Notes under the pieces: model-generated
Databases searched by the model: none
Told to the model about the DNA's origin: nothing
What the model saw: only the letters and a program-made list of their open reading frames with translations
Part shown: positions 34,769 to 55,936 of the stretch, piece by piece
How positions within the stretch are numbered: the first letter of the stretch is position 1
How the letters are laid out: each line of letters begins with the position of its first letter
Made by a program: the position numbers and the translations under genes
From: Rickettsiales bacterium
Lineage (GTDB): Bacteria; Pseudomonadota; Alphaproteobacteria; Rickettsiales; UBA1997
Length of the DNA stretch: 64,000 bases
Direction of reading: 5' to 3'
NCBI GenBank assembly: GCA_049418765.1
Contig: JBMSJJ010000006.1
Coordinates: 41,894 to 105,893, forward strand

Positions 34769-34770
34769 CT

Positions 34771-35775
34771 ATGAGCGTTGATGCTTTAGAATCATTTTTG
34801 TCGCCCTTAAGTCAGATTTTTGCTCGCGAAGGTGTGAGTGAAATTTCCATTAATCGCCCTAGAGAAGTTTGGGTTGAAATTAAAGGCGATATGTTTCGCG
34901 AAGAGTTGTCAAATTTTGATGTTGAGCATTTAAAAACCCTTGGAAGACTTGTTGCCCAGGCAACCGAGCAAAGGCTTAGCGAAGAAGAGCCGCTTTTATC
35001 GGCAACTTTACCTAATGGTTTTCGTGTGCAAATCGTATTTCCACCCGCTTGCGAGCCGGGTCATGTGATAATGTCGATTCGTAAGCCTTCACCCTTAAAA
35101 TGGTCGCTTGATGATTATGATAAAATGGGAATGTTTGATACCACATCAGTTGGCGAAATTGAAGATAAAAACGCCTTAATTTTAGGCAAATTACTTGAAT
35201 TAAATCGCATCAAAGAATTTATTTCAAGGGCAGTGCTTTACAAAAAAAATATCATCATTTCGGGCGGTACTTCGACTGGTAAAACTACTTTTACCAATGC
35301 GGTTATTCGTTCAATTCCTCATGAAGAAAGGCTTATAACCGTTGAAGATGCTCGCGAGATTGACCTTAATTCTCATCCAAATCGAGTGCATTTGCTTGCT
35401 TCAAAAGGTGGTCAGGGTAGGGCAAAAGTTAATACTCAAGATTTGATTGAGGCCTGCTTGCGTCTTCGTCCTGAGCGTATTATCGTGGGTGAGCTTCGTG
35501 GATCGGAAGCTTTTAGTTTTCTTCGAGCGATAAATACCGGACACCCCGGATCAATTTCAACACTTCACGCCGATACTCCACAAATGGCAATTGAACAGCT
35601 TAAATTAATGGTGATGCAGGCTGGTCTTGGCATGCCACCAGATGATATTCTTAATTACATTAAAAATGTGGTCGATATAGTGATTCAATTAAAGCGGGGC
35701 GAAAAGGGCAGGAGATATATATCGGAGATTTATTACCGACCTCTTCATTCTAATCCTAAAAATAAAAAAACTTAA
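34771..35775 (+). CDS. virB11: Type IV secretion ATPase VirB11
   Basis: 334 aa. ISINRPREVWVE, MSIRKPS, Walker A GGTSTGKTT and a His-box region TGHPGSISTLHA. No other vir genes are in the window. Confidence 0.9.
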   Translation: MSVDALESFLSPLSQIFAREGVSEISINRPREVWVEIKGDMFREELSNFDVEHLKTLGRLVAQATEQRLSEEEPLLSATLPNGFRVQIVFPPACEPGHVIMSIRKPSPLKWSLDDYDKMGMFDTTSVGEIEDKNALILGKLLELNRIKEFISRAVLYKKNIIISGGTSTGKTTFTNAVIRSIPHEERLITVEDAREIDLNSHPNRVHLLASKGGQGRAKVNTQDLIEACLRLRPERIIVGELRGSEAFSFLRAINTGHPGSISTLHADTPQMAIEQLKLMVMQAGLGMPPDDILNYIKNVVDIVIQLKRGEKGRRYISEIYYRPLHSNPKNKKT

Positions 35776-35777
35776 AT

Positions 35778-36794
35778 ATGGAAACAATTAATCATCGTTT
35801 TTTTAGAAAGAAATTTCAAAGTTTAAATCTTCATGAAGTCTTGGAAATAACTCGAGGTGTGCCACATAAAAATGTTAATCATGAAACCAAAATTCACGAT
35901 ATTAAATCGCTTCCCAATGCCTCTGAAAACGACATCTCTTTTTTAAGTTCAGGGCAATATCAAGATAAATTTTTAGCTTCAAAAGCTGGATTTTGCTTTA
36001 TCGAAGAAAAAAATATCAGCAAACTTCCATCTTCAATGCTTGGCATTGTTGTTAAAAACCCTTATTTTGCTTATGCTCAAATTGTAAGCCATTTTTACGA
36101 GGTCAAGCCTGCAAATTTTGCTTCACAAAATATTCATCCAACCGCCAAGATTGGCGAAAATTCTCAAATTGCCCCAAATGTTTTTATTGGTAGCAATGTT
36201 GAGATCGGTAAAAATGCTCAAATCAATGCTGGCGCAGTTATTGCTGATAATGTTAAAATCGGCGATAATTGTATAATCGGTGCCAACTCAGTGATTTCTT
36301 TTGCAGTTATTGGCGATAATTGTATTTTTTTAAATGGTGTAAAAATTGGTCAAGAAGGCTTTGGCTTTGTTCATAATAATGGTGTTAATTTTAAAATTTT
36401 GCAAATTGGCATCGTGCAAATTGGCAATAATGTAGAAATTGGTGCCAATAGCTGTATAGATCGCGGAGCCCTTGAAAATACTATTATTCACGATGAAGTT
36501 AAAATTGATAATTTATGCCAAATTGCTCATAATGTTGAGATTGGTCGAGGCACAGTAATGGCGGGTTCAAGCGGAGTTGCTGGCAGTTGTAAAATTGGAA
36601 AATATGTACAAATTGGCGGAAATTCTAGCCTTGCGGGTCATATTAATATTGGCGATGGAGTTAAAATTGCTGGTATGAGCGGGGTAATGCGTGATATCGA
36701 GCCGATGTCGATTGTGGCAGGAATTCCAGTCTTACCAATCAAAAAATGGCACCGCTTAAATTTGATTTTGCAAAAACTCCTTGAAAAAAATTAG
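35778..36794 (+). CDS. lpxD: UDP-3-O-acylglucosamine N-acyltransferase
   Basis: Long run of hexapeptide repeats (IGENSQIAPNVFIGSNVEIGKNAQINAGAVIADNVKIGDN...). Length is 338 aa. Confidence 0.9.
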   Translation: METINHRFFRKKFQSLNLHEVLEITRGVPHKNVNHETKIHDIKSLPNASENDISFLSSGQYQDKFLASKAGFCFIEEKNISKLPSSMLGIVVKNPYFAYAQIVSHFYEVKPANFASQNIHPTAKIGENSQIAPNVFIGSNVEIGKNAQINAGAVIADNVKIGDNCIIGANSVISFAVIGDNCIFLNGVKIGQEGFGFVHNNGVNFKILQIGIVQIGNNVEIGANSCIDRGALENTIIHDEVKIDNLCQIAHNVEIGRGTVMAGSSGVAGSCKIGKYVQIGGNSSLAGHINIGDGVKIAGMSGVMRDIEPMSIVAGIPVLPIKKWHRLNLILQKLLEKN

Positions 36795-36849
36795 GGCAGG
36801 GAATTGTTTTTGGCATATAAATTTCTCCTTAATTTGATTGATTAAATTT

Positions 36850-36884
36850 AGTGCATTCAAAACAAATTTTAAATGCACTTTTTA
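36850..36884 (+). terminator. Rho-independent terminator after lpxD
   Basis: Perfect 8-bp stem AGTGCATT / AATGCACT (36850-36857 and 36872-36879) followed by TTTTT. Confidence 0.6.
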
Positions 36885-37067
36885 TCAATTCATGAAAGGA
36901 GGATTTGTTCTAAATTTGGGGTAGCTTAACATCAAAATTGAAGGATATTTTTTGCCACGGCCAGAATCATTCTTGGTTTTTTCTCTACATTTATGGACTA
37001 CTAAATTTTATTAGCCTTCTCTAAATCTTCATGTTCAAAAGCCGAAGACATTAAGATATATAACTTA

Positions 37068-37096
37068 TTGACTTAAGTGCGAGTAAATATTAATAT
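37068..37096 (+). promoter_or_regulatory. Sigma70-like promoter of hipBA-1 with a palindrome overlapping the -35
   Basis: TTGACT, 17-nt spacer, TAATAT. The palindrome ACTTAAGT (37071-37078) overlaps the -35. The same TTGACTTAAGT string precedes hipB-2. Confidence 0.5.
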
Positions 37097-37138
37097 TATC
37101 ATATTACTTTTTGTAATAAATCTATTATAATTAATACA

Positions 37139-37447
37139 ATGATATTATTAAATTCGGTAGCCAAAGCTCAAGAAAAAATTGCTGAAAATGCTCGCAAACA
37201 GCGTCTGGCATTGGGATTGACTCAACAAGGTTTGGCTCTGCGTTCTGGAGTTGCCTTGCCAACTTTACGCAAATTCGAACAAAAGAGTCAGATTTCTTTG
37301 GAGTCATTCTTGAAACTTCAAATGGTTCTAGGTGGTCTAGATAATATTGTTAAATCAGTTGAGCTAAAAAACCCTGAATTTTCTTCAATTGATGATGTGC
37401 TTAAAGCCAACAAAATCAGCATTCGCAAAAGAGGAAATCGCAAATGA
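37139..37447 (+). CDS. hipB: XRE-family HTH antitoxin (HipB-like), copy 1
   Basis: 102 aa. HTH LGLTQQGLALRSGVALPTLRKFEQ. It overlaps the downstream kinase gene by 4 nt. Confidence 0.8.
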   Translation: MILLNSVAKAQEKIAENARKQRLALGLTQQGLALRSGVALPTLRKFEQKSQISLESFLKLQMVLGGLDNIVKSVELKNPEFSSIDDVLKANKISIRKRGNRK

Positions 37448-38670
37448 AAATCGCTGTAAAAGAAATAAAGGTTGGTCTAAATTTTGGCGATGGAATCATT
37501 CCTGTCGGTCGTTTGGCGATAAATAATCGGCAGATTTTTTTTCAATATCACCTCGATTTTCTTGAAAAAAATCTTAATATTTCGCCATTTCATCTACCGT
37601 TAAAATCAGGTGTATTTAGTTTTGATAATAATTTATTTGAAGGTTTGTGCGGAGTATTTAATGATAGCCTTGCCGATGGTTGGGGGCGATTACTTTTTGA
37701 CCGTTTTGCCAGATCTTTTGGAATAATTTCTTCGAGTATTTCGCCACTTGATCGATTAGCATTTGTAGGATTGAATGGTTTTGGTGCTTTAGTTTATGAA
37801 CCAGATTATAGCTCTAAGGAAATTATTGATAATATTAATTTAGATGAATTGGCTAAGCAATCTCAAGAGGTTTTAGATGGAGCATCTGATGAGTTAATAG
37901 AAAATCTTTTAAATTTAAATGGTTCATCAGCGGGAGCTCGTCCAAAGGCTTTGATAGGTCTAAATAATGATCGCAAAACAATTATTCACGGCGCTCGTGA
38001 TTTGCCAGATGAATTCTCGCCATGGATTGTTAAATTTAGCAGTTCACAAGATGGTGCAGATGCTGGAATAATCGAATATGTTTATGCATTAATGGCGAAA
38101 AATGCTGGAATATTAATGCCTGATATTCACTTATTTGCCAGCAAAAAAACTGCGGGATATTTTGCGGTTAAAAGATTTGATAGAAATGCCAAAAAACATC
38201 TGCATATGCACAGCGCGTGTGGCTTATTACACTCTAATTTTAGAGTTCCATCGTTGGATTATCAAGATTTGATTACGCTTACTAGTGTGCTTACCAAGGA
38301 TGCTCGAGAAATTGAAAAACTATATCAACTGGCGGTATTTAATGTTCTCGCCTACAACCGCGATGATCATTCAAAAAATTTTAGTTTTTTAATGGATGCA
38401 AAAGGTGATTGGAAACTTTCACCCGCTTACGATTTAACTTTTTCATCAGGACCAAATGGCGAACAAAGTACAATGGTTATGGGCGAGGGGAAAAATCCTC
38501 GCATTGATCATTTAATCAAATTAGGGCTCGAAGCTAAATTATCCAAAACTCGCATTACCGAAATTATTGAACAAACGCGATCAGCTCTAGCGGGCTGGGA
38601 AGCTCTTGCAAAAGAATATGGGGTATCTAAGGAAAATATTCGCTTGATAAAAAAATATATCGTTGGTTAA
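37444..38670 (+). CDS. hipA: HipA-family Ser/Thr kinase toxin, copy 1
   Basis: 408 aa. GSSAGARPKA (HipA P-loop-like motif), the catalytic-loop motif NRDDHSKNFSF and the Mg-binding motif SPAYDL. Confidence 0.85.
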   Translation: MKIAVKEIKVGLNFGDGIIPVGRLAINNRQIFFQYHLDFLEKNLNISPFHLPLKSGVFSFDNNLFEGLCGVFNDSLADGWGRLLFDRFARSFGIISSSISPLDRLAFVGLNGFGALVYEPDYSSKEIIDNINLDELAKQSQEVLDGASDELIENLLNLNGSSAGARPKALIGLNNDRKTIIHGARDLPDEFSPWIVKFSSSQDGADAGIIEYVYALMAKNAGILMPDIHLFASKKTAGYFAVKRFDRNAKKHLHMHSACGLLHSNFRVPSLDYQDLITLTSVLTKDAREIEKLYQLAVFNVLAYNRDDHSKNFSFLMDAKGDWKLSPAYDLTFSSGPNGEQSTMVMGEGKNPRIDHLIKLGLEAKLSKTRITEIIEQTRSALAGWEALAKEYGVSKENIRLIKKYIVG

Positions 38671-38759
38671 AAATCAAGAAATTCGATACTAAAAAATTAA
38701 TTGAAATTGGAAGAGTGATAGTTAAATTTTAGGTTATTAAAATAGACTTTGGTTGCGAA

Positions 38760-38799
38760 GGGCTCGTGATTTGAACCAACGTCCACGATAAATCTAATG
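38760..38799 (-). pseudogene. Degenerate copy of the 3' end (T-arm plus acceptor) of tRNA-fMet; candidate distal att remnant
   Basis: TGGTTGCGaagGGCTcgtGATTTGAACCAACGtcc compared with the tRNA gene's TGGTTGCGggGGCTgGATTTGAACCAACGacc. There are identical blocks of 8 and 14 nt in the same orientation. The T-stem no longer pairs. Confidence 0.55.
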
Positions 38800-39685: not shown

Positions 39686-40153
39686 CTACTTAGTGATAAG
39701 GTCATTCATTTGCTTTAGAGAGTAAATAATAGCCCAATAAATAGCAAAATTACTTAGGCAATTATCTTCTTCAAAAAAGCTGTTAATTGCAGAGAAGAAT
39801 ATTGTACCAATTGCCAGCAAATAAATGATGAACAAAGTCATGGCTATGAAATAAAACTTTTCACCAACTTTCAAATTATCCCATTCCAGATACTCTATTA
39901 AGCTCTGCATCACAACATAAGATAATGTTAAGATATAATATGATGGAAGCATGCTCCAAAGCATCATCTGATTATTTGAGAAATCAAAATCTCTTCCCAT
40001 TAGATCGAGAAAACATCCATAAATCAGAATAATAATCGCAAATGCGGCTTTAGCGATAATGTCGTGTCTGATAATTTTTAAAGAAAAAAACTTTTTAGAA
40101 TTTTGACAAAAAATTTCGTTATAAGAAAGGTTTAGTAAATTTTTGTTTTTCAT
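39686..40153 (-). CDS. Hypothetical 4-TM membrane protein (island cargo)
   Basis: 155 aa with four hydrophobic helices. It starts 9 nt downstream of the lipoprotein gene on the same strand. Confidence 0.55.
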   Translation of the reverse strand: MKNKNLLNLSYNEIFCQNSKKFFSLKIIRHDIIAKAAFAIIILIYGCFLDLMGRDFDFSNNQMMLWSMLPSYYILTLSYVVMQSLIEYLEWDNLKVGEKFYFIAMTLFIIYLLAIGTIFFSAINSFFEEDNCLSNFAIYWAIIYSLKQMNDLITK

Positions 40154-40162
40154 TAGAAGGAT

Positions 40163-40651
40163 CTATTCAAAAAATTTCTTATTCGGATCTGATATTTGCG
40201 ATTCGGTAGCAATATAATTACGCATTCCCTGAAAGATATTTTGCGGCCATGAAGTTGCGGTCATATCTCCCCAGAATCCCAAATCTTTTGAGCCTTTGAC
40301 TAAGATTTTTACTTCCGATCCTTTTCTGACTTCATCTTTTCTGATATAAACCCCAGCAACAATATTCCAATCATACTTGGTCATTCCATGCTCACCAATG
40401 GCAAACAATTTTGAGTAATCAGCTCTTTTTATAGTAAAATCAGCATTAGCCAAACCAGCTTTAGCAGCAAGATAAGCGGTTCTTGTATCAACGCCCTTTA
40501 AGAAAAATACCTCTTCATATTGCGACCATCCAGTGCGGCCTTCTTTAGTGGAGTCAAAATCAATTTCAGAAGATGATTGGGGAAGTGAATTTATTGAGAT
40601 GCAGCTGGATAGAAAAACACATAATAAAACGAAATAAACTAACCTTTTCAT
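40163..40651 (-). CDS. Hypothetical lipoprotein (island cargo)
   Basis: Lipobox VFLSSC. 162 aa. No family recognised. Confidence 0.55.
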   Translation of the reverse strand: MKRLVYFVLLCVFLSSCISINSLPQSSSEIDFDSTKEGRTGWSQYEEVFFLKGVDTRTAYLAAKAGLANADFTIKRADYSKLFAIGEHGMTKYDWNIVAGVYIRKDEVRKGSEVKILVKGSKDLGFWGDMTATSWPQNIFQGMRNYIATESQISDPNKKFFE

Positions 40652-41020: not shown

Positions 41021-44000
41021 TTAATGCTTGGAATTATGTACACGACTCACATGTCCTTCATAGAAGCTAACCTTTAGATCACTTCCAATAGTTATTGCTG
41101 CCGTAGTATGCATAAAAAAGCTTTTTTCGTAACTAGAGCTTTCTTTGTATTGTTGTAGCTCAACAAAGAGCAACAAACTCATCTTTTTCTTTTCCAGCAC
41201 TTTTTGTAAAAGTGATTTTGAACATTTTAAGCGAACTGCCTCTTTATATGTTTCTCGATCATTTTTATTCGGAGCTTGCCAAGCTTCTGCTGTGGCCAAT
41301 ATTTTACCTGACTTACTTTTCCATTCTCTTCTGAAAGGATCATCAGTACGAAGAGCGAATTGACGCACTATATCTTGTGCAAAATATGGACGCTCCATAA
41401 CGCTCCTTGCTCCTAAAGCATCATGATTATCTATTTTTACCTCTGCTGAAGGTTGAACAATCCATGCTTTAAAATTTTCTTTATCATCGCGCATATATTC
41501 ATCTTCTTCGCCTTCATGGTATATTGGTAACCAAGCTTGAAATGGATCTTCTTTAGAAATTTTTATTGCTTCATTCTTTGCTTGTTCTGGAATCACCAAA
41601 GCAGAAGAAATCTTTATTTGGATCTCATCTGAGGAAATCCAATTTCCATCAACAATGATCTCTTTATCTATCTTTGATGAAGTAATCCCTAATAATCCTA
41701 GTATAATATCTTTGTTTCCGGTGATAACCAATCCTTCTTTACCTTGCTCAAGAAGATTAATATTCGCATCCAAAGGAGTTTTATCCAGACCATCAGATAA
41801 CCATAGACCATCATTTCTGGTTAATATTTCTCTATTAAGAAAATAAGCCCATGGATCATCTTCATAGTAGGAATCATTCGTAATAGGACATTCTGCAAGA
41901 AGCTGTCCTGCTGCCAGAAACAGAGCATTCCAACCAAGCTGGTTACCATATGAATGATATTTTGAAGTAATCTCTCTTATTTCTCGTCTTCCATAATTAT
42001 TATTCCTGCCACCATGTGTATACATGCTTTTTATATCTTTATCAAAGATTCTAACCCATTTTGTAATAATGTCATTCATCTCCCACCCGTATTTACCAAA
42101 TACATCACTGAGACGCTGTACATCATATTTGCCAAAGTCGTGATCCAAATAAAATTCCGATTTCATCTCAGGGATATTGTCGGGTCGATTTTCATGCCAT
42201 CCTCTACTACCAGATCTTCTCTTCTCTTTTAATCGCGGATATGGAGATTTATTTACAGATTCTATTTCCTTCTTCTCTTTAGTAGAGAGTGTGAGATGAC
42301 CACATTCAACGCATTTTTTAATTATATATGAGGAAAAATGGCGCATCAAAACATGAGGGAAATCCTTATCTAGAGCTATTTTCTTAATGGCGTCAGAGTA
42401 TTTCGTTACTTCCTTCGGATAATCTAGAGCAAGTCGTGCTAAAGCGATTAATAACCATAATTTTGCATGTAGATGATAGAATGTTAGTTCTGGAGCTTGA
42501 AAAGGGTGAGCGTTTTTCGTTTCTATTTTTGATATTAATGCTTCTATAACATCCCATCTGCCAAGTTTTGCAAAGCGCCTAATGCTATGAGCCGCCCTCC
42601 ATCTGTCTGCTGCTGAAGGAGAACCAAGTTTTAACCATACCAAACCTGATGCAATTTCATTTATATGGCTGGGTGGATACATATTTTCTTTCCACTCGCC
42701 ATCAGATACATTTGAAGAAAGTTTTGTAGAACCGCTATTTAGCAATCTTACTAGAGCCTTTTGTCCTTCACCATCACCAGACTTTTCGCAAATAATTGAG
42801 GCCAAAGACATCCACACTGGTGCGGAAATATAAATGTCGCTCCCAGAGAAGATTTTAATCAACCTCATTGCCAACGTTGTAATTGGAACGCTGCAAAGTT
42901 CAGAAAGTTCATTTAGGTTTGAAGTCGACAATCTATCATGAAAAATTAATTCGTCCGAGTGTTGATCCAAAATGGTATCTGCAATACTGCTAAATATAGT
43001 ATCCAAAGAATTAGAAGATTTTTTCCAATCGTCTTTGCATGCCTTCAACTCCTCAATCTTTCTATAATAGAATAAATGCTTAATTCTGGATATAATTTTT
43101 ATGTAACTAGAACGCTCGCCAAAACGTACCTTGGTACGTACTCCTGACAGGTAATCCTTTTCTAACATATGACCCGATTGGACTTCGGTTATCTTATAGA
43201 TAGCTTCAGATATTACTTCTTCATTTAGTGGATCAGCTTTATCAATGAGTCTCTGTATTAATTTTTTGTTTTCTTTATCTCTATTTTTTGCTTCTTCTCG
43301 ATGCTTTGGATCATCATAATTGTAATTTTTGTAATTACTGTTTTCGTTTTGCTGAGCTACGATAATCTTAGATCTTTTTCTTAATTTAGCCAAGTGAACA
43401 GTTTCTTCATCAGTCTCACCAAAAACTTTAGCAGATATTGTATGCAATCTTTGTAGCTCAGCGTCCGATAAACGACCCGAATTATTTTCTTCAAACTGCG
43501 CTAGAATCTCCCTAACAAGTTGTTGTTGATTAGGATGACTCCTGTTTTCTATAGCTTGTGCAAAGTGAGAAAAATCATAACTCCAAGTTTCAGAAGGATC
43601 ACAAAGTCTTAACAATGCTAGAGCTATGTCAGCTTCTATTTTTTTATCTTTTAAAAGAGCGATCAGATAGGGCATAAGAGTATGCTCTAAACCTACCTTA
43701 TTTCTATCATCCCACCTACCTAGTTTTGCAAGTGCTTTACATCCAGAAGTTTTAGATAAACCTTGCGCAAATGCATACCAAGGAAACTTATGCGATTCAC
43801 CATCCCACATATTTAATTCGCATATGTTGGTGAGAGTATGAAAATCCTTATCTTCAAGTTCTTGGCCTTTTAAAGATGCGGCAAACAATAAGAGTTCGTT
43901 TGTAAAATCATAATCTCCCGACCCAATAACATCCATCTGATCCAACCCGGCTTTAAAATAGCTAGCTGCCTCTTTTATACTTGCTGGAAGTATAGCACGC

Positions 44001-47000
44001 GATAATTTTGCATATTGAGCGGCGCGATTATTTACATCATTCTCTTTCTCAATTATGGAACTGGCTTTAGTTGCCATTTCTCCCGCTAGTTCGTGAAATT
44101 GATTTATCTCTGATAGAATTGACACGATTTTCACTAAATAGTGTGCTGAAACAAATCCTTCCTTATTCAATACATCGCAAAATTTTTTTATTGATGTCAG
44201 ACATAAATCGTCTCTAGACCATATAGAAAATGCGATTAATTCCTGTCCCAAAAAATCAAAAGTTTGAGAATCGTGATATAAGATTTTAACATTTCTAGAA
44301 TCAGACCAAGCTTGTATTAAATTAATAAATGCATCATCTGCTTTCCCTATTGGAGTTGATAAAAGCTCAGCTAAAGATTTTGCTAATTTTGTTAGCAATG
44401 GGAGACGCTCACTTAAGAAACGTTCTGCGTTAGTTTTTGTATCGTAGCTAAAAGACTCTTTTTCGTTCTTATCCTTTTTTTCTTTCTGACTTTTTTCGTA
44501 GCTCGCAGCAATTTCTTTTTTTAACCGTTCTTTAAATTCAGCGTCACCTAAATTTCTATCTGGTGCAGCCCAGATTTCTTCTAGCTCTTCTGGCAGAATA
44601 TCTTGTGCTGACAAAACATAATTTCCTGCAACAGAATCTATGGCCTTTCGTATAATAAATGGTACAATGTACTGACCAGAATAAATATTGTTAAATGAAT
44701 GTAGGCTAGGAGTTTTAATCTTTAAAACACTGCAAATGGATGTAACTTCTGATTTTAATCCTAATGATAAAGCTATTGATGAAGCTTTAAATAACCCATC
44801 CTGAATGATGTAATTTTTGCTACGTCGATCATCATATCCTACTTCTAGAAGACCATTATCTTTACAAGTTTTGGCAAGATTTTTTATTAGCTTCTTTCGC
44901 TCATTATCTGAGCATTTATAAAAAGATAAAGCTCCAACAATAAGACCAATATTACCTGCTAGTGCTTTTAAAAATTTATCTTCATTTATTGCTGAATTAG
45001 GATGTAGAATCTTTGACTGCTTAATAAACGAAAAAAGATTTTCAGAAATTTCATAAACTCCCCAACATTTCCATCTATTCATCCAGTTAGCAGCTTCTTC
45101 ATTTTTACCTTGTGATAAAAGGCATAGTGGAATAGCCGCTATATCCATAATTTCATATCCCTTACGATCCCTTCGATAGTCATCTTTCTGTTTAGAAAAA
45201 TGATTTATCCATTCTTCAGCCTGAAGGCTATGGCGGTAAGCTTCACTTTTTTCATCTGATAATATGTGTGCAATTGCAAGTCTTGCATGTCTTGTACCTT
45301 GCCAAGAAGTGCGAATTTCAAATAATCTCCGTTTTGCATCAATATCATCAGATGCAACAATCAGATCTGGATTAGCCAGAATATAATCTTTTCCTCTCTG
45401 ATTACTTGCTTCGATGGTAGAAAGCTCCACTAGTAAATTGACAAGATGATCATAATTGTTTTTAGAGGTAGTGGTATCATAATATGCTGCTGCTTTCAAT
45501 CGCGCATAGCGGATAGTTTGCTTTCCAACATTACTAGTTATTTCTGCTGGAAAGCGTTCATCAAAAGCTAATTCAAAAAGCTTTTCACCATCTCCTATCT
45601 TTTGCAATAATCCTGGTAAAGCCTGAGCGGAATAGACAGAATTATCTTGCTGTTTAAAGAGGTTTTCAGCCACCTTTCTGAGAGCCTGATCATTAGATGC
45701 ATAATCCTTTCTAATTAAAGTTTCTGTAGGCTCATCTCTAAACCATATGCCATGTTTTGTCTTTTCTAACAATGGCGCAAGATCTGCAACAAAACTCTCT
45801 ATCGCACTTTCTTCCATATTTTGAGCAGCAGCATATTCCCTAAGAGGTACCGGAGGTGGAAGTGTTGATAATCCAGCTAGAAAAGAGCCTATATCTGACT
45901 CTTTATAACCTCTTGTTTTCGCTTCTTTTAGAGCATCTGATATACGATTCTTAAGTAACTCATCCAATTCAATCGTTTTATTTATCTCGGATTTATCTAG
46001 CAGTCCTCTATCACTAAGTGCCAGATGTTCAAGTACTCGGGGATTTCCACCTGACCTAGCAAAAGCAACTTCAATCTCAGTGGAGTTAATGTTATTTATA
46101 CGATTTCTTAAATAGATTTCAGTCTCTTTTAAAGAAAACGGTTTTAGTTGATACTCTTCGCAAGAAAAATCTCCTTTAGCCAAATCTATACGATGTGTAC
46201 GACAAGTTAAAACTATTGAGAAATTTGGAATGTTATAATTCTCGAAGCTTTCTAATAGCACTTTAACGAAGCAATCTTCTCTTTTATCCTGAGCAGAATC
46301 TGCTGCATTGTCTATTGCATCTATAAAGAGGATTATCCTTTTATCGAAGGACGATCTTTGTAAAACATTCGTTGCCTGCTTAATCCTACTAATAAATGTT
46401 TTTATTAAATCTGATGGGTCATCATGAGAAGGTATCATAGGATCACATAATCCTTTGCTTGCTAGGATATTTATTATGTGCGTAAAAGCCTTCTTTGGGC
46501 GATGACGTGAATCTCCTGTTAATCTATATGAACCACGACCAAAACAGTCGAACAAAATAACTTCATGTTCATCAGAGTAATGTCTTGCTATACTTTGCAG
46601 AAATACAGTTTTTCCAACCCCTCCGGCCGCATGTATAAGAAATGGTTTATTTGACTTTGATATAAGATTAATAACATCAGATAACTGTTCGCGCTCAACA
46701 ATTGATCCCACTTCAGGAAAACTACTAGAACAAGGAAAGAGATCTTCTTCGCTAACCTCAAGCCTATCTAAGATATCCAAACGCTCTATCACATTATTTT
46801 GCTGTCCTTCTACTCCAGCTTTATCCCTTAGCAATTGCTTAATAGCAACTAGACGCGCTCGCGATATATGATCTTGAGCAGTTGACCAATCAGCTATAAC
46901 TCTCGACAAAATTCGCTTATTTTCTCTTAAATTTCCTGCTAAACCGGAAAAAGATATTCTCTGTGCAAAATCAATAAGTTCCTTTCCATCAAAATCACAT

Positions 47001-47503
47001 GCAGTTTTGAACTGATTTACTTCCTTTTTAACTTCATTAGATACATCTTTATTTTTTGCTATTGATTCAATTGCTTCCGTTAATGGCGAATATAAAGGTC
47101 TATTAGTTACCAATTCAAACTCTAGCTTTTCATTAGTCTCTTTTTCGCCATGATTCTTTTTGTGGTCTTTATATGATGCAGCAAATTTCTGAATTGTTTT
47201 CTTAGCATTACTAGCACGAAAGGGTGTTTGTTCGTGACTTATTGAGTATTTGAGTTGAACAATTACGACCTTTTTAGCATCTTTAAATGTTGGTTTCTTG
47301 CCGTAATACAAAGTAACATCCGCTATTTGTACAGTTTTATCGGAAGCTACATCTTGATCATTGGGACCTTCTATTGAAAGACCTATAAAATTATCTTGAG
47401 GCCACAATAACTTTAATGCTTGTCGTGCCGCCCAATTTTCATGAAATTCATGTCCATCTCGTGAGGCTCTTGTTTTATCAACTTTACCTAGTTTGTTTGT
47501 CAT
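41021..47503 (-). CDS. 2160-aa STAND-class P-loop NTPase with a nuclease-like N-terminal module and a long uncharacterised C-terminal region
   Basis: Ordered motifs: Walker A HAAGGVGKT (aa 291-299, nt 46607-46633); Walker B RIILFIDAIDNA (aa 389-400); IVLTCRTHR (aa 430-438, TxR/RNBS-B-like); LKPFSLKETEIYL (aa 452-464); SGGNPRVLEHLA (aa 484-495, GxP motif). The N-terminus GHEFHENWAARQALKLL...SIEG...IADV...VVIVQLKYS fits a D/E...QxK restriction-endonuclease-like pattern. The start overlaps the hipA-2 stop by 4 nt. Confidence 0.75.
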   Translation of the reverse strand: MTNKLGKVDKTRASRDGHEFHENWAARQALKLLWPQDNFIGLSIEGPNDQDVASDKTVQIADVTLYYGKKPTFKDAKKVVIVQLKYSISHEQTPFRASNAKKTIQKFAASYKDHKKNHGEKETNEKLEFELVTNRPLYSPLTEAIESIAKNKDVSNEVKKEVNQFKTACDFDGKELIDFAQRISFSGLAGNLRENKRILSRVIADWSTAQDHISRARLVAIKQLLRDKAGVEGQQNNVIERLDILDRLEVSEEDLFPCSSSFPEVGSIVEREQLSDVINLISKSNKPFLIHAAGGVGKTVFLQSIARHYSDEHEVILFDCFGRGSYRLTGDSRHRPKKAFTHIINILASKGLCDPMIPSHDDPSDLIKTFISRIKQATNVLQRSSFDKRIILFIDAIDNAADSAQDKREDCFVKVLLESFENYNIPNFSIVLTCRTHRIDLAKGDFSCEEYQLKPFSLKETEIYLRNRINNINSTEIEVAFARSGGNPRVLEHLALSDRGLLDKSEINKTIELDELLKNRISDALKEAKTRGYKESDIGSFLAGLSTLPPPVPLREYAAAQNMEESAIESFVADLAPLLEKTKHGIWFRDEPTETLIRKDYASNDQALRKVAENLFKQQDNSVYSAQALPGLLQKIGDGEKLFELAFDERFPAEITSNVGKQTIRYARLKAAAYYDTTTSKNNYDHLVNLLVELSTIEASNQRGKDYILANPDLIVASDDIDAKRRLFEIRTSWQGTRHARLAIAHILSDEKSEAYRHSLQAEEWINHFSKQKDDYRRDRKGYEIMDIAAIPLCLLSQGKNEEAANWMNRWKCWGVYEISENLFSFIKQSKILHPNSAINEDKFLKALAGNIGLIVGALSFYKCSDNERKKLIKNLAKTCKDNGLLEVGYDDRRSKNYIIQDGLFKASSIALSLGLKSEVTSICSVLKIKTPSLHSFNNIYSGQYIVPFIIRKAIDSVAGNYVLSAQDILPEELEEIWAAPDRNLGDAEFKERLKKEIAASYEKSQKEKKDKNEKESFSYDTKTNAERFLSERLPLLTKLAKSLAELLSTPIGKADDAFINLIQAWSDSRNVKILYHDSQTFDFLGQELIAFSIWSRDDLCLTSIKKFCDVLNKEGFVSAHYLVKIVSILSEINQFHELAGEMATKASSIIEKENDVNNRAAQYAKLSRAILPASIKEAASYFKAGLDQMDVIGSGDYDFTNELLLFAASLKGQELEDKDFHTLTNICELNMWDGESHKFPWYAFAQGLSKTSGCKALAKLGRWDDRNKVGLEHTLMPYLIALLKDKKIEADIALALLRLCDPSETWSYDFSHFAQAIENRSHPNQQQLVREILAQFEENNSGRLSDAELQRLHTISAKVFGETDEETVHLAKLRKRSKIIVAQQNENSNYKNYNYDDPKHREEAKNRDKENKKLIQRLIDKADPLNEEVISEAIYKITEVQSGHMLEKDYLSGVRTKVRFGERSSYIKIISRIKHLFYYRKIEELKACKDDWKKSSNSLDTIFSSIADTILDQHSDELIFHDRLSTSNLNELSELCSVPITTLAMRLIKIFSGSDIYISAPVWMSLASIICEKSGDGEGQKALVRLLNSGSTKLSSNVSDGEWKENMYPPSHINEIASGLVWLKLGSPSAADRWRAAHSIRRFAKLGRWDVIEALISKIETKNAHPFQAPELTFYHLHAKLWLLIALARLALDYPKEVTKYSDAIKKIALDKDFPHVLMRHFSSYIIKKCVECGHLTLSTKEKKEIESVNKSPYPRLKEKRRSGSRGWHENRPDNIPEMKSEFYLDHDFGKYDVQRLSDVFGKYGWEMNDIITKWVRIFDKDIKSMYTHGGRNNNYGRREIREITSKYHSYGNQLGWNALFLAAGQLLAECPITNDSYYEDDPWAYFLNREILTRNDGLWLSDGLDKTPLDANINLLEQGKEGLVITGNKDIILGLLGITSSKIDKEIIVDGNWISSDEIQIKISSALVIPEQAKNEAIKISKEDPFQAWLPIYHEGEEDEYMRDDKENFKAWIVQPSAEVKIDNHDALGARSVMERPYFAQDIVRQFALRTDDPFRREWKSKSGKILATAEAWQAPNKNDRETYKEAVRLKCSKSLLQKVLEKKKMSLLLFVELQQYKESSSYEKSFFMHTTAAITIGSDLKVSFYEGHVSRVHNSKH

Positions 47504-48747
47504 GCGGTTTTCTGGATGCGATGAATGTGATTGCTGATCAAAGAAATATTATCACTAGAAACACCATACTCTTTTGCTAAATCTTTCCAAGATGCTAAAG
47601 CTGTTTGTGTTTGATCAATAATTTCAGTAATGCGTGTTTTGGATAACTTAGCTTCATTTCCCAATTTGATCAGATGATCAAAGCTAGGATTTCTTCCTTC
47701 GCCCATAACCATCGTGCTTTGTTCGCCGCTAGGACCGGATGAAAAAGTTAGATCATAAGCGGGCGATAACTTCCATTCACCTTTTTCATCCATCAAGAAG
47801 CTGAAATTTTTAGAGTGATCGTCACGATTATGCGCAAGAACATTAAATACCGCCAATTGATATAGTTTTTCAATTTCACGCGCATCACGGGTTAAAGCAC
47901 CTGTTAGAGCAATCAAATCCTCATAATCTAGCGATGGAACTCTGAAATCAGAATTTAATAAACCACAAGCTGTGTGCATATGAAAACGCTGTTTACCATT
48001 TCTATCAAAACGCTTAACAGCAAAATAACCCGCACTTTTCTTGGCAGAAAATAGGTGAACATCAGGCATGGAAATTCCAGCTTTTTTAGCCATCAAAGCG
48101 TAAACATATTCAATTGCACCAGCGTCTGCGCTATCTTGTGAGTTACTAAATTTGACAATCCAAGGCGCATATCCATCAGGCAAATCATGTATGCCATGAA
48201 CAATATTTTTCCTATCATTATTCAGACCTATCAGAGCTTTTGGACGCGCCCCAGCCGATGAGCCATTTAAAGCCAGAAGATCTTGTAAAACCTCGTCAGA
48301 TGTTCCATTCAAGACTTCTTTTGCCTGTTCTGCAAGCTTATCCAAGTTAATACTGTTGTTGCTTTCTTGAGTGCTATGATCTGGTTCATAAACCATTGCA
48401 CCAAGACCATTTAATCCAACATGTGCCAAGCGATCTAATGGCGTAATATCGGAAGGCAAAATAGCAGTTGAGCGAGCAAAACGATCAAATAGCAATCGTC
48501 CCCATCCATCAGGAAGGCTGTCGTTAAATACTCCGGGAAGCCCTTCAAACAAATTGTAATCGAAACTGCTTACTTCAGATTTCAATGGTAAGTGTAGTGG
48601 CGAAATATCTAGGTTTGCTTCAATGAAGGTGCTGTGATATTCAAAATAGATTTTGCGATCTCGTATTGCTAAGCGGCCAACTGGGATGACTTTACCACCA
48701 AAATTCAGCCCAACTTTTACTTCATTTACAGATTCATATTTATTCAT
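47500..48747 (-). CDS. hipA: HipA-family Ser/Thr kinase toxin, copy 2
   Basis: 415 aa. GSSAGARPKA, NRDDHSKNFSF and SPAYDL are all intact. By eye about three quarters of residues are identical to copy 1. Confidence 0.85.
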   Translation of the reverse strand: MNKYESVNEVKVGLNFGGKVIPVGRLAIRDRKIYFEYHSTFIEANLDISPLHLPLKSEVSSFDYNLFEGLPGVFNDSLPDGWGRLLFDRFARSTAILPSDITPLDRLAHVGLNGLGAMVYEPDHSTQESNNSINLDKLAEQAKEVLNGTSDEVLQDLLALNGSSAGARPKALIGLNNDRKNIVHGIHDLPDGYAPWIVKFSNSQDSADAGAIEYVYALMAKKAGISMPDVHLFSAKKSAGYFAVKRFDRNGKQRFHMHTACGLLNSDFRVPSLDYEDLIALTGALTRDAREIEKLYQLAVFNVLAHNRDDHSKNFSFLMDEKGEWKLSPAYDLTFSSGPSGEQSTMVMGEGRNPSFDHLIKLGNEAKLSKTRITEIIDQTQTALASWKDLAKEYGVSSDNISLISNHIHRIQKTA

Positions 48748-49052
48748 TTGCGGCTTCCTCTTTTTCGTATATTTGTTTTGTTAGTTTCTAACACTTCGTC
48801 AATTGATGAGAAAGAAGACTGCTCTGGCTGTATAGCTTTAACAAGGTTTTCCAAAGCACCCAGAACCATTTGTAATTTCAAAAATCCTTCGAGAGAGATT
48901 AATCCTTTTTGTTCAAACATACGCAGAGTTGGTAGTGGTAAACCAGATTGCTCTGCTAAAGCTTGTTGAGTTAGTTGTAGCTTCAATCTTTGTAAGCGTG
49001 TATTCTCAGATAGTTTTTTTTGCGCTTTTGATATGGTAATAAGTGATAACAT
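48744..49052 (-). CDS. hipB: XRE-family HTH antitoxin (HipB-like), copy 2
   Basis: 102 aa. HTH LQLTQQALAEQSGLPLPTLRMFEQ. It has the same C-terminal IRKRGSRK tail as copy 1 (IRKRGNRK). It overlaps hipA-2 by 4 nt. Confidence 0.8.
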   Translation of the reverse strand: MLSLITISKAQKKLSENTRLQRLKLQLTQQALAEQSGLPLPTLRMFEQKGLISLEGFLKLQMVLGALENLVKAIQPEQSSFSSIDEVLETNKTNIRKRGSRK

Positions 49053-49095
49053 AATATTATGTAAAAATAGTTGCTTACTAGCTAGTAATAATATA

Positions 49096-49124
49096 ATGTT
49101 AGTTAATAAGCGAACTTAAGTCAA
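49096..49124 (-). promoter_or_regulatory. Sigma70-like promoter of the hipB-hipA-STAND operon with the shared palindrome
   Basis: On the minus strand: TTGACT (49124-49119), 17-nt spacer, TAACAT (49101-49096). The sequence TTGACTTAAGT is identical to the one upstream of hipB-1. Confidence 0.45.
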
Positions 49125-49215
49125 TAGATTTTAAACTTTTACACTGGCTTAATTCGCACGATAGAAATCTTGAAGGATTGTTTAGTAAAACACAAAAAAG
49201 AGAGGAAAAAAGTAA

Positions 49216-51507
49216 ATGATATATCATCTCATACGCAGTTATAAATTACACAGCGATAGATTGAAAAAGAGCTATAAACGCTTTTTGAAGAAGACAAAAA
49301 TTTCCTGTTTAAGATTTAAAAAAAAATTGTGCATCTATTTCTCATTAACTTTCAGATGGATAAAGGATAAATGGCAAAAAGTTCTATTTTGGATAAGTAT
49401 ATTTCCTGCATCATTTATTACTCTAGTTTTACTAGGTTTATTTTACTTTGCAGGATTGCCTAATTGTACCAATAATGAACCATGTCATCAAGAGATAGGT
49501 AATACAATCGCCCAATTAATGGGAACAATTCTAGCTTTAGTTTATTCCCTTGCTATTGTAGGTTTTCAAATTGCGGGTACAAATTACTCTCGCTCTGTAG
49601 TCAGAATGCTCTTTAGGGATCGCAAGGCACAAATTTCAGTCTTAATCACGTTTTCATTAATTGTTATTTCGCTCTTCTTATCTCAAATAAAGCTATTTCC
49701 ATTTTGGGGCTTCATTAGTGCAAACGGCATTTTCTATTTTCAGATATTTCTTCTGGGACTTGCTGTAGATGCTATTCATTTCTTTTACACACGAGTAATA
49801 AACATCAATGATCCTCTACACACGCTAGACGCTCTTTTTCAAGAGCTTAGTTTATCAATTAAGAAAAGTGATAAGATTATTAGAAGTCGAGTTAAGAAAA
49901 AGGAAGGAAGCGAAAAAGACTTAGATGGTTTTAATCCTGAAGTCGCTGGTTTATATGCTCTATATCCTGACTTCGATAGTTCAGTAAATTATTACATTAA
50001 CGATATTTTTGAAGTTTCCCATAAGGCTTTGCAAAGAAACGATTATACCACCACTAATGGCTCTCTTCAGACAATAGTCAAAATCATGAAAGAATTTCTA
50101 AACACTAGAAAAGATACGATATTCATACTGCCAAGCACTAATCCTTTTATGATGATGAGTTGCCCAACTTCAGTAGATAGAGTCGTTGAAAAAGCTTGCG
50201 AAGAATTAATGACCTTAAACAAAGAAGCGATTCGCCAAGAAAAAGAAAATATTAACATCAAAATCATACAAGCATTCTGGCAAATTATTGATCTTTGCTT
50301 GCAAACAAAGATAAGCTCTAACCCATTTAACCAGAATGCGTTGGTTACGATGCCATTAAGTTATATTGGTAGTTGTGTCTTAGAGTGTCAGAGAAAGGGA
50401 ATGATGGAAGTTCCGTGGGAATTTATAAAATATATTCCCTATATTACATCGAAAGCTGAACAAGATATTCAGGCTATAAAATTGTATCTGCCTTTAGCAG
50501 ACACTACTAATAAGGTAATTCATGCTGCATATACAAACAAACATGAAGTAGTCGCTAAACAAGCTATAACTAATCTACTGCATATGGTTTCTATATTGAT
50601 AGAAAGGAACTATTGGCAGCTTGAAGAGGTATCTGAAGATGTGTTGAAGAAGGTAACTTTCTATTTCTCATTTCATAAAATATGGGAAATTGCAGAGCCG
50701 AGTAAGTTTATCATGAATGTATTTTCACCATTCGATACCAGCTCAAACTACTCATTACAAATATTATCAGAAAAAAGCAGATGCCTAATTAAAAAATCTG
50801 ATCCAAGAGAAATCTTCTCGGATCCTTATCTGAATTTTATTAAATTTAATAAAATATTGTCAGATTGCTTTTCTGAATTGTTTAGAAATCAATCTCCCGG
50901 TAAAAGCTTTACTATGCATGGCATAGTTTATGGTTTAGATCATATACTAAGGGTGTATTACTTAGTAATAGAAGAAGCTGAAAAAGTTGAAAGAAAACAA
51001 CCCTACCATATAAGCAACTTAATAATTAGCCTTAAGCTTTATATATGGCCGCTTAGCTTTATTAAAGAGATAGATGGGCAATACGCAAAAAATTGTGGGG
51101 ATGTTTTAGGTGTTCAAGCGATACATTATGCAAAAAAAAGCTATACTGAAATTTCAATAGAATTGTGCAAAGTACTCTTAAGAATTGCCTTAGCTTCATA
51201 TAAAACAGCAGAGGATAAAATAAGCGCAATAACACGAATATTTTATGACATATGGTGTGTTGAGAAATATTTAGAGAAGTTAGGACAAAGCGCAGAAGCC
51301 GAGATAATAAAAAAGGTATATACCTCAAAAAGTCAGGAAGTTTCAGAAAAAGATTGGGGAAAAATCTTGGTTAAGATTTCTGAATTTCCTGCAAACTTTA
51401 AGAGGGAATTGAATAATGGATATAGTACCAGAATATTAAAAACTCCTGAGGGTTTTCTAATTAATTGGTTAGAGAAAAATACCACCTTTGACAATAGAAA
51501 TTTGTAG
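49216..51507 (+). CDS. 763-aa membrane protein, DUF2254-like N-terminus
   Basis: Four N-terminal TM helices. IAQLMGTILALVYSLAIVGFQIAGTNYSRSVVRMLFRDRKAQ resembles the DUF2254 signature (…Q.as.q.SPR…f..D). It has a large soluble C-terminal part and is divergent from hipB-2. Confidence 0.5.
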   Translation: MIYHLIRSYKLHSDRLKKSYKRFLKKTKISCLRFKKKLCIYFSLTFRWIKDKWQKVLFWISIFPASFITLVLLGLFYFAGLPNCTNNEPCHQEIGNTIAQLMGTILALVYSLAIVGFQIAGTNYSRSVVRMLFRDRKAQISVLITFSLIVISLFLSQIKLFPFWGFISANGIFYFQIFLLGLAVDAIHFFYTRVININDPLHTLDALFQELSLSIKKSDKIIRSRVKKKEGSEKDLDGFNPEVAGLYALYPDFDSSVNYYINDIFEVSHKALQRNDYTTTNGSLQTIVKIMKEFLNTRKDTIFILPSTNPFMMMSCPTSVDRVVEKACEELMTLNKEAIRQEKENINIKIIQAFWQIIDLCLQTKISSNPFNQNALVTMPLSYIGSCVLECQRKGMMEVPWEFIKYIPYITSKAEQDIQAIKLYLPLADTTNKVIHAAYTNKHEVVAKQAITNLLHMVSILIERNYWQLEEVSEDVLKKVTFYFSFHKIWEIAEPSKFIMNVFSPFDTSSNYSLQILSEKSRCLIKKSDPREIFSDPYLNFIKFNKILSDCFSELFRNQSPGKSFTMHGIVYGLDHILRVYYLVIEEAEKVERKQPYHISNLIISLKLYIWPLSFIKEIDGQYAKNCGDVLGVQAIHYAKKSYTEISIELCKVLLRIALASYKTAEDKISAITRIFYDIWCVEKYLEKLGQSAEAEIIKKVYTSKSQEVSEKDWGKILVKISEFPANFKRELNNGYSTRILKTPEGFLINWLEKNTTFDNRNL

Positions 51508-51515: not shown

Positions 51516-52673
51516 ATGGCAAGCTCTACCAAGAAAAATCATTATGTTCCGAGATTTTATTTAAAATCCTTCCAGAAAGATGGAGTAGTATATCAAAGAG
51601 ACTTAACGAAAAATAAAATTTATCCCATCTCAAATTTAATTGAGGTGTATAAGAAAAATAATCTCTATACAATTTAGGATAAAATTACATGCGATGACAT
51701 CACATTTTTCTTTCAAATAGCCTACAATGGACAGGTCAATCCTTATGATCAGAGATTTTTTAAATTTTTAATATCATTTTTAAATGATGAGTTTGCAAAC
51801 TTGTTGGAAGTGAAATCTAGTAATGATTCTTACACTAGTAAAATGACAGAAGAAATTAGGAAAACATTTAATAACCAAATTTCTCGTAACCAAGAGGATC
51901 TGTACCAAAAATATGAAAATGATTTTTTGTTTATTTATAAAAAGATTCTAACCCAAGAAAATTTATTATTTCTAGAAAAGGAGAAGGAAGAAGATTACAC
52001 ATTTAAACTGCATCATCTATTGAAAATAACTCAATATATGTTTCACCATTTTTACTCAAAGAGTGTATCTGAAATAAAAAAACTAAATCCTAAAGATGCA
52101 TTAGAGTTAAAACGCATAACACCTCCCGATGTATCCGCTTTGAAAGATTCTGAATACTATAATATGATCTATTACCTAGTATCACAGTATTTTAGAACAC
52201 TAAAAATGTAAGAATCTTTAAAAGAAATATTCGATAGTGAGTTAGTTAGACAAACTATAATCAAAAGCAAAAAAGTTCTTAATATAGATAATGTTAATTC
52301 AAGTAACTTTATTTACTTAATGTCGCACTATCAAACTATTGATTTAACTAATAGATTAGTTGCTTCTGGTTATAAATTAGTTTTAATAAAGAATTGTAGC
52401 GATTTAGATTTTATTACTTCCGACAACCCTTCTATAAATACATATTCGCATATTGTCAAAAGTGGAGGAAATCTAAAAGAAGATGAATTTGAAATATTTT
52501 TTCCATTATCTCCGAAATTAGCTGTGCTATACGGTAAAAAAGGTGACTATTATGATTTATCTACCGTAGAGATCAAATCTATGCTTCAAATAAGAATATG
52601 GAATGCTGCAATAAAAGAAGTTGCTCATCGATATATATATTCTGACCAAGAAGATATTGTAAAAATTCACTAA
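51516..52673 (+). pseudogene. DUF4238-family gene interrupted by two in-frame stop codons
   Basis: A single frame reads MASSTKKNHYVPRFYLKSF... (DUF4238 N-terminal hallmark HYVPxFYLxxF). It passes a TAG at 51675-51677 and a TAA at 52209-52211, then continues to ...DFITSDNPS... (a second hallmark). All three pieces are in the same frame: 51801-51516=285 and 52320-52212=108. Confidence 0.7.
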
Positions 52674-52965: not shown

Positions 52966-53042
52966 TGGTTGCGGGGGCTGGATTTGAACCAACGACCTTC
53001 AGGTTATGAGCCTGACAAGCTACCGGGCTGCTCTACCCCGCG
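52966..53042 (-). tRNA. Initiator tRNA-fMet (anticodon CAT)
   Basis: The reverse complement is CGCGGGGTAGAGCAGCCCGGTAGCTTGTCAGGCTCATAACCTGAAGGTCGTTGGTTCAAATCCAGCCCCCGCAACCA. It is 77 nt and folds as a cloverleaf, with the C1xA72 mismatch typical of bacterial initiators and an encoded CCA. Confidence 0.9.
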
Positions 53043-53046
53043 ATAA

Positions 53047-53240
53047 GATGAAACCGAGTTTTAAGCCCGGTTAGCTTTTATTTGTTTTTGCCGAGGGCAA
53101 AAACTCGGGGCTGCTTACCCCGCTGGTATTGATGAAACCGAGTTTTAAGCCCGGTTAGCTTTTATTTGTTTTTGCCGAGGGCAAAAACTCGGGGCTGCTT
53201 ACCCCGCTGGTATTGATGAAACCGAGTTTTAAGCCCGGTT
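53047..53240. repeat. 84-bp tandem repeat, about 2.3 copies, directly upstream of tRNA-fMet
   Basis: Units at 53047-53130 and 53131-53214 read as identical. A partial third unit covers 53215-53240. Each full unit carries GGGCTGCTTACCCCGC, which mimics the tRNA 5' end (GGGCTGCTCTACCCCGC), and the hairpin TTTTTGCC-gag-GGCAAAAA. Confidence 0.85.
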
Positions 53241-53345
53241 AAATTTTATGATTAAATTTAATTTAAAAAAAACAAATTTAATTTGTAAAGTTAGTGTAAG
53301 GTTTATATTTTAGATGGCAAGGATTAAGTTAAATTTTTTTATTTT

Positions 53346-53672
53346 ATGCAAACAATTATTTTACTAACTTTATCAAATATTTTTATGACCTTTGCTTGGT
53401 ATGGTCATCTCAAATTTCGTGATGTAGCATTATGGCAAGTGATTTTAGTGAGCTGGCTGATTGCCTTGCCAGAATATGCATTACAAGTGCCGGCCAATCG
53501 CTATGGTTATGGAAAATTTACCGCCATCGAACTAAAAACTATTCAAGAGGTAATTTCTTTAACGGTTTTTTGCATTTTTTCAATTTTTTATTTAAAAGAA
53601 AAATTACTTTGGAATCATTTACTTGGTTTCGTTTTGATTGTGATTGCGACTTATTTAATTTTTAAGAAATAG
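53346..53672 (+). CDS. DMT-superfamily small membrane protein (DUF486-like)
   Basis: 108 aa. LSNIFMTFAWYGHLKF at the N-terminus and four TM helices. Confidence 0.75.
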   Translation: MQTIILLTLSNIFMTFAWYGHLKFRDVALWQVILVSWLIALPEYALQVPANRYGYGKFTAIELKTIQEVISLTVFCIFSIFYLKEKLLWNHLLGFVLIVIATYLIFKK

Positions 53673-53782
53673 GGTAGAGGGTTAATAAATTTATGCCAAT
53701 AGCGAAGTTGATTAGATTTAGGCAAATTATTAAAATAAAAAAAAATACAAAAAATTAAATTAATTATTTACATAAATTAAAA

Positions 53783-54022: not shown

Positions 54023-54100
54023 TTTCTTATGGTGATAAGAATTAATTTGAGTTTTTAAATTATTATAAAGCCAATCTTCGCCCTTCGGGCTTCGCTTGGC

Positions 54101-55924: not shown

Positions 55925-55936
55925 TTTTAAGCAATT

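Follow-up and report, generated by a model that had tools for sequence, protein, structure and literature searches.

We analysed a 64,000-nucleotide stretch of DNA (the window) from contig JBMSJJ010000006.1 of a Rickettsiales bacterium (assembly GCA_049418765.1). Its minus strand carries a large gene, here called avs3, whose product, judging from its sequence and from structure models, is a divergent member of the Avs3 family, homologous to it along almost its whole length and with a domain layout that has already been described. By analogy with SeAvs3, the Avs3 protein of Salmonella enterica (AVAST type 3), the gene very probably encodes an antiviral STAND (NLR-like) protein, which would act as a single-gene abortive-infection system by a SeAvs3-like mechanism. 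This assignment rests on homology from end to end, on the motifs and the predicted fold, on the absence of a conserved partner gene and on the location of the gene in a variable island. The open reading frame (ORF; positions 41021-47503, 6483 nt) starts with ATG, is intact and encodes 2160 residues, in agreement with a preliminary description made from the DNA letters alone. A 100% identical protein, with the same neighbours, was found in five independent SRA assemblies.

The protein had matches to Avs3a in both defence-oriented profile libraries that we searched. In PADLOC, Avs3a was the only strong match (E=3e-231), mad8 being marginal (E=0.016), and no match to Avs1 or Avs2 was obtained at E<=0.1. 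The NCBIfam Avs3a model (NF041816) matched with E=1.4e-250 and 835 bits, the equivalog cutoff of this model being 2800. When the protein was compared with PDB chains by phmmer, SeAvs3 (8DGC_A, 2092 residues) was found with E=1.4e-135 in two colinear stretches, residues 11-834 being aligned with SeAvs3 7-830 and residues 1122-2128 with SeAvs3 1079-2055. Searching 8DGC with a profile of 28 full-length homologues improved the E-value to 6e-199 and lengthened the first stretch to residue 992. The most divergent stretch, residues 835-1121, was left unaligned by plain phmmer; it is predicted to be helical and lies inside the structural alignments described below.

Pfam, by comparison, was much less informative. 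The NACHT family matched residues 291-468 (E=2.9e-8, above the gathering score), together with related P-loop families, while a scan reporting matches up to E=0.1 gave no nuclease family for the N-terminal part (the head) and nothing beyond about residue 470. Because Pfam finds only NACHT and P-loop families, the head and the tail had looked unassignable. The preliminary description could match nothing after about residue 520 and proposed that the C-terminal 1650 or so residues might form a novel sensor. The first of these statements holds for Pfam, and fails for the defence-specific profiles and the PDB; the second is contradicted by the homology to SeAvs3 seen with phmmer, with the family profile and with Foldseek. 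We also considered the Pfam blank over head and tail as a sign of novelty and rejected it; the defence-specific and structure-derived libraries were unambiguous. The "1650 residues with no motif" are the Avs3 sensor rather than an orphan one, a sensor family already described with this same architecture, and the whole protein is accounted for by the published SeAvs3 architecture.

Further evidence came from the N-terminal domain. A profile of the first 260 residues matched SeAvs3 7-253 in the PDB with residues 9-260 (E=8.6e-44); SeAvs3 was the sole match, no CBASS Cap4 chain being obtained even at E<=10. This bears out the PD-(D/E)xK/Cap4-like nuclease head of the preliminary description, the motifs of which were located by script at residues 17-30 (GHEFHENWAARQAL), 43-46 (SIEG), 60-63 (IADV) and 82-87 (VQLKYS). 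In the phmmer alignment, E45, D62, Q83 and K85 stood opposite SeAvs3 E41, D62, Q82 and K84, so that D62 and K85, already singled out as nuclease residues, have direct counterparts in SeAvs3. All four residues were invariant in the 28 full-length homologues and still invariant in 20 sequences from three deep clades. From the PD-(D/E)xK topology we infer that they have catalytic roles.

The STAND motif set was likewise corroborated. The script check placed GGVGKT (Walker A) at residues 294-299, LFIDAID (Walker B) at 392-398, LTCR at 432-435 (the CR pair at 434-435), LKPFS at 453-457 and GGNP at 485-488; all these positions were as previously given, except that LKPFS had been said to start at 452. 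In the predicted NTPase module they are followed by a winged-helix hairpin at about residues 579-588. Chance does not explain these matches, as phmmer paired each motif (Walker A, Walker B, CR, LxPF, GNP) with its SeAvs3 counterpart, and G294, G295, G297, K298, T299, D395, D398, C434, R435, G486 and R489 were invariant in the 28 homologues.

The fold was predicted with two AlphaFold2 models (residues 1-1050 and 1000-2160), each computed from a 14-sequence alignment. In the first model (predicted local distance difference test score, pLDDT, 72.9), an alpha-beta-beta-beta-alpha-beta head is followed by a P-loop NTPase bearing a winged-helix hairpin, after which come helical repeats. In the second (pLDDT 65.5), helical repeats continued until about residue 1890 and were followed by a beta-rich domain at about residues 1918-2158. 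Foldseek searches of the PDB put 8DGC first, well ahead of all other matches, for both halves, with E=1.4e-39 over 1069 columns for the N-terminal half (25% identity) and E=5.3e-21 over about 1200 columns for the C-terminal half (19-20% identity). The next matches of the N-terminal half were STAND/NLR proteins (6mfv, Avs4, SAMD9, CED-4, Apaf-1 and NOD2), while those of the C-terminal half were generic solenoids with E>=2.8e-5. The profile and structure searches that had been suggested in the preliminary description were favourable to its nuclease head and identified its tail as the Avs3 sensor, an outcome which that description had itself named as refuting its reading of the tail.

On binding the large terminase of a phage, SeAvs3 is described as tetramerising, which activates its nuclease and leads to the degradation of double-stranded DNA; it recognises active-site residues of the terminase and the ATP bound to it (PMC13601566; bioRxiv 10.64898/2026.08.25.746987). 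The ATPase domain of the terminase is bound by a beta-rich "C-terminal sensor", described for SeAvs3 and EcAvs2 (PMC13601566), and its nuclease domain is also held by the long TPR domain of SeAvs3 (PMC13601566; bioRxiv 10.64898/2026.08.25.746987). The head of SeAvs3 is named Cap4 and has a PD-(D/E)xK site (PMC12803255; bioRxiv 10.64898/2026.08.25.746987); names of SeAvs3 nuclease mutants were not found in the literature searched. Y1714 and H1770 of SeAvs3 are reported to contact the terminase-bound ATP, His1770 being reported as essential (bioRxiv 10.64898/2026.08.25.746987).

By homology with SeAvs3, the resting protein of the window would be an autoinhibited monomer. During infection, its TPR-like solenoid and its beta-rich C-terminal domain would recognise and bind some conserved protein of the phage, the large terminase subunit being the likeliest, and the ATP-bound STAND module would then tetramerise. 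The tetramer would bring together the N-terminal Cap4-type nuclease domains, with E45, D62, Q83 and K85, and so lead to the degradation of double-stranded DNA, death or arrest of the cell preceding phage release. The trigger, the tetramerisation and the DNase activity are presumed here from the analogy with SeAvs3. The upstream hipBA genes described below would most simply be an independent toxin-antitoxin neighbour, which in this lineage would happen to supply the promoter and translational coupling for avs3.

Comparison with SeAvs3 (8DGC, bound to the PhiV-1 large terminase) showed the same length class (2160 versus 2092 residues) and the same domain order, from the Cap4-type nuclease through the STAND NTPase and the long TPR-like solenoid to the beta-rich C-terminal sensor. 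The E/D/QxK nuclease residues and the Walker motifs align, and SeAvs3 is likewise a single-gene system. The two differ in that the nuclease loop matching SeAvs3 41-60 is 4 residues shorter in the protein of the window, that the host belongs to another phylum, and that the start of avs3 is coupled to hipBA. Avs1 and Avs2 share the logic of a STAND module with TPR and C-terminal sensor. Avs1 is described as structurally close to Avs3 and Avs2 as having the C-terminal sensor in common (PMC13601566), with a shorter TPR domain and other effectors (PMC13601566; bioRxiv 10.64898/2026.08.25.746987). An N-terminal PD-(D/E)xK nuclease activated by STAND tetramerisation is also found in Avs4, Avs7 and further Avs proteins with a Cap4 or Mrr head (PMC12803255; bioRxiv 10.64898/2026.08.25.746987), and Avs4 (8DGF) was the fourth Foldseek match of the N-terminal half (E=1.3e-7). 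However, sensors of the Avs4/Avs7 type are unrelated and bind the portal or the major capsid protein, and the similarity to these proteins is far weaker than to Avs3. The CBASS effector Cap4 shares its name and PD-(D/E)xK site with the SeAvs3 head; activation here would occur through STAND oligomerisation, not through a cyclic oligonucleotide.

More than 1000 relatives of the protein were found at E<=1e-5, and the best 120 were nearly all full-length, with 46-64% identity. A pattern scan of species-representative genomes confirmed 175 encoded relatives, of which 80 loci were kept. They span Nitrospirota, Acidobacteriota, Desulfobacterota, Proteobacteria, Myxococcota, Verrucomicrobiota, Leptospira and further groups. 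Identity to SeAvs3 in this deep clade is only about 19-25%. We looked for partner genes around the 80 loci with tblastn and by all-vs-all clustering of the flanking ORFs. No conserved partner, either Avs3b or hipBA, was found, and no neighbour family was common to more than 5 loci, the recurrent ones being integrases and SNF2 helicases. The closest homologues adjoin an integrase/primase and a type I restriction-modification system, or a relaxase, ParDE and a PIN gene. An "Avs3b" partner, suggested by the name Avs3a, was not found in the window and is not mentioned in the literature searched. The neighbours in the island gave no defence match in PADLOC or NCBIfam. These data suggest that avs3 works as a stand-alone gene, without an obligatory conserved partner.

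Coordinates of the avs3 gene, the putative domains of its product and the surrounding features of the window (boundaries preceded by "about" are approximate)
Feature	Position	Strand	Basis
avs3-like gene, 2160 residues, putative whole single-gene antiviral STAND system	41021-47503	-	ORF, PADLOC, NCBIfam, phmmer match to 8DGC
Predicted Cap4-type PD-(D/E)xK nuclease effector domain, residues 1-255 (N-terminal)	46739-47503	-	PDB profile match, invariant residues, predicted core
Predicted STAND/NACHT NTPase module, residues about 265-600	45704-46711	-	Pfam NACHT, motif positions, Foldseek
Predicted TPR-like alpha-helical solenoid of the sensor, residues about 601-1900	41804-45703	-	Both models all-helical; sequence and fold alignment to 8DGC
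Predicted beta-strand-rich C-terminal sensor domain, residues about 1901-2160	41024-41803	-	Predicted strands at residues about 1918-2158; phmmer alignment
hipA-family kinase toxin gene, island copy	47500-48747	-	Pfam HipA_C E=1.3e-50, Couple_hipA E=6.3e-14
hipB-type helix-turn-helix antitoxin/repressor gene, island copy	48744-49052	-	Weak HTH_3, weak TIGR03070 couple_hipB; 62% identical to core copy
Promoter/operator-like region 5' of hipB	49084-49133	-	Sigma-70-like site; 50-nt similarity to the other hipB upstream region
Strain-variable island carrying avs3, 14.2 kb, not present in a relative of 95% identity	38729-52965		blastn of window against L086 (GCA_049423025.1)
tRNA-Met(CAU) gene, 3' end forming the right border of the island	52966-53042	-	ARAGORN, Rfam; L086 homology resumes exactly at 52966
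Fragment resembling a tRNA 3' end at the left border (imperfect, att-like direct repeat of the 3' end of tRNA-Met)	38750-38784	-	Local alignment

Upstream of avs3 on the same strand, the window contains a hipBA pair in the order hipB, hipA, avs3. Both junctions overlap, the TGA stop of hipA and the ATG of avs3 sharing 4 bp (ATGA). The HipA kinase motifs GSSAGARPKA and NRDDHSKNFS are present in the translation, and the pair has the features of type II HipBA systems (Couple_hipA and HipA_C domains, a helix-turn-helix antitoxin, overlapping genes), which are not part of the definition of the Avs3 family. A sigma-70-like site (TTGACT-17-TAACAT) was seen at 49124-49096, the assignment being tentative, as scans for promoters and terminators showed no enrichment relative to shuffled sequence. 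The region upstream of hipB is probably the only promoter feeding avs3. A second hipBA pair (37139-38670, plus strand) belongs to the part of the genome that is also present in a relative, and is inverted with respect to the island pair, with 76% identity for HipA and 62% for HipB; the upstream regions of the two pairs are similar (37059-37108 versus 49084-49133). In a further hipBA copy, 88.8% identical and without avs3, hipA is followed by ATGACAAATAAA, corresponding to the first four codons of avs3 (MTNK), and then by a stop. Since these codons are present after a hipA that has no avs3, the junction falls within the opening codons of avs3. What lies downstream of this avs3-less copy (L092) showed no similarity to the window. 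In the 88.8%-identical hipBA of other assemblies, L092 (11180-11360, GCA_020050275.1) and L093, an 11-nt unit, CCAGAAAACCG, is expanded about 9-fold where hipA ends and adds RQKTARKPPEN repeats to HipA. The window has this unit only once, exactly where hipA and avs3 meet.

The island was delimited with the help of a metagenome-assembled genome labelled Rickettsiales bacterium (GCA_049423025.1, here L086), to which the housekeeping proteins of the window are at least 90% identical. Its contig is colinear with the window over 31142-38728 and 52966-60685, with 94-97% nucleotide identity, and lacks the sequence in between. The 35-nt repeat at the left border had a local alignment score of 44, no other place in the window exceeding 25. 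In L086, the tRNA-Met site holds instead about 870 bp of unrelated sequence (7460-8333), with a 193-aa ORF of no known family, which makes the site look like a hotspot of variable content. The island yielded no integrase ORF. A compositional anomaly of the island was considered and rejected, because the rise in G+C content at the level of the window reflects coding density, and the G+C content at third codon positions (GC3) of avs3, 0.243, is like that of host genes.

A DUF4238-family gene of the island (51540-52673, plus strand) encodes an N-terminal HYVPRFYLKSF motif and a C-terminal part matching PF14022 (E=1.1e-11), and is a pseudogene with two in-frame stops. A predicted membrane protein of 763 residues (49216-51507, plus strand), divergently oriented with respect to hipB, showed a weak, sub-threshold similarity to DUF2254 and no PADLOC or NCBIfam match, and belongs to a cluster of three sequences; it could be another defence gene. 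Downstream of avs3 and on the same strand lie two small ORFs (39686-40651), encoding a protein of 162 residues with a signal-peptide/lipobox-like N-terminus and a hydrophobic one of 155 residues. They had no family matches and no homologues near any other Avs3 gene. Directly beside the tRNA-Met gene, on its other side, an 84-bp tandem repeat (53047-53249) consists of two exact copies and a partial third, and overlapping blastn segments suggest another copy number in L086. A stand-alone GIY-YIG domain ORF of 79 residues (53783-54022, minus strand, E=4.9e-17) is found between a DMT_6 gene and a tRNA-Ala.

Several observations weigh against an Avs3-family protein with a SeAvs3-like mechanism. The 835 bits obtained with NCBIfam are far under the equivalog cutoff. 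Scores of 695-829 bits were obtained for members of other deep clades, so that proteins above this cutoff would be just the near relatives of the enterobacterial one. The identity to SeAvs3 in the Foldseek alignments is low, particularly in the sensor half, and the models are of moderate quality (the pLDDT values given above, and a predicted template modelling score of about 0.4). The residue opposite SeAvs3 His1770 is Arg1839, in a loop that is aligned with low confidence; in the clade, the equivalent loop is Arg-rich and without His, and it is deleted in one member (P0014). The equivalent of Tyr1714 is Y1793 in our protein (DFGPY versus DFGKY), but is variable within the clade. No clade member that had been assayed was found in the literature searched. 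An Avs3 chassis with another trigger, the sensor reading a non-terminase phage protein or a terminase without its bound ATP, would be consistent with these substitutions, with the low identity of the sensor half and with the failure of plain phmmer to align residues 835-1121. There are also precedents, as a wide variety of phage proteins is recognised by other Avs families whose TPR sensors are similar (PMC12803255), and KpAvs2 recognises several unrelated proteins (PMC11564622). Yet the sensor is colinear with that of SeAvs3 over its full length, including the beta-rich domain that binds the terminase ATPase, Avs1, Avs2 and Avs3 are all described as sensing terminase despite large divergence (PMC13601566), and the arginine opposite His1770 lies in a low-confidence region of the alignment. 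We consider a change of trigger rather unlikely, and terminase sensing in this clade, by analogy with SeAvs3, likely though not secure.

The position of avs3 behind hipBA also raised the question of a functional three-gene unit, in which HipB would repress avs3 together with hipBA and the HipA kinase would regulate or back up Avs3, as in a toxin-antitoxin-gated NLR. The ATGA overlap, with neither promoter nor terminator seen between hipA and avs3, and the identical arrangement in the five assemblies are compatible with it, and the MTNK codons shared with the sequence downstream of an avs3-less hipBA suggest that the gene's own 5' region was lost. In another setting, that of HipAD, a role of HipA-family kinases in phage defence has been validated (PMC13092281). 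Against this, tblastn found hipA adjoining an Avs3-like gene at none of the 80 related loci (at L033 there is only an opposite-strand fragment), hipBA copies at least 90% identical exist elsewhere without avs3, and close homologues of avs3 are flanked by toxin-antitoxin genes of other types (ParDE, PIN), as expected from generic clustering of toxin-antitoxin and defence genes. The hipBA-avs3 linkage is lineage-specific, and a three-gene unit appears improbable. Similarly doubtful is the more elaborate proposal that avs3, having lost its own 5' region, may have no expression other than as third cistron of a hipBA operon autoregulated by HipB, so that the toxin-antitoxin status (HipB degradation, HipA activity) would set the level or the activity of the NLR-like sensor, and that the His1770-less clade may read terminase differently or sense another phage protein. 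Finally, avs3 could be an inactive relic: having arrived by horizontal transfer as a defence gene, it would have lost its function in a reduced genome of the Rickettsiales type. The decayed DUF4238 gene and the missing integrase would fit such a history, as would a host lineage that is AT-rich and probably host-associated. However, a reading frame of this size has stayed open in an AT-rich genome, none of the catalytic and NTPase residues has been lost, and the same protein is found in five samples. As its GC3 matches that of host genes, avs3 has long been resident without decay and is not a recent arrival. A relic is therefore very unlikely, and a stand-alone Avs3-type defence protein remains the best explanation.

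This finding, a divergent Avs3 protein in an unusual host and behind an unusual operon junction, leaves the known workings of Avs proteins unchanged. What seemed to be an orphan giant protein has become an annotated anti-phage sensor, with D62, K85, K298 and the loop 1830-1850 as testable positions. In addition, a large and phylogenetically broad clade of Avs3-like proteins, with more than 1000 full-length members of about 2160 residues, carries no database label beyond "NACHT domain-containing" or "hypothetical". That a 6.5-kb defence gene has been preserved intact on a strain-variable island implies continuing exposure of this lineage of the Rickettsiales type to tailed phages or elements resembling them.

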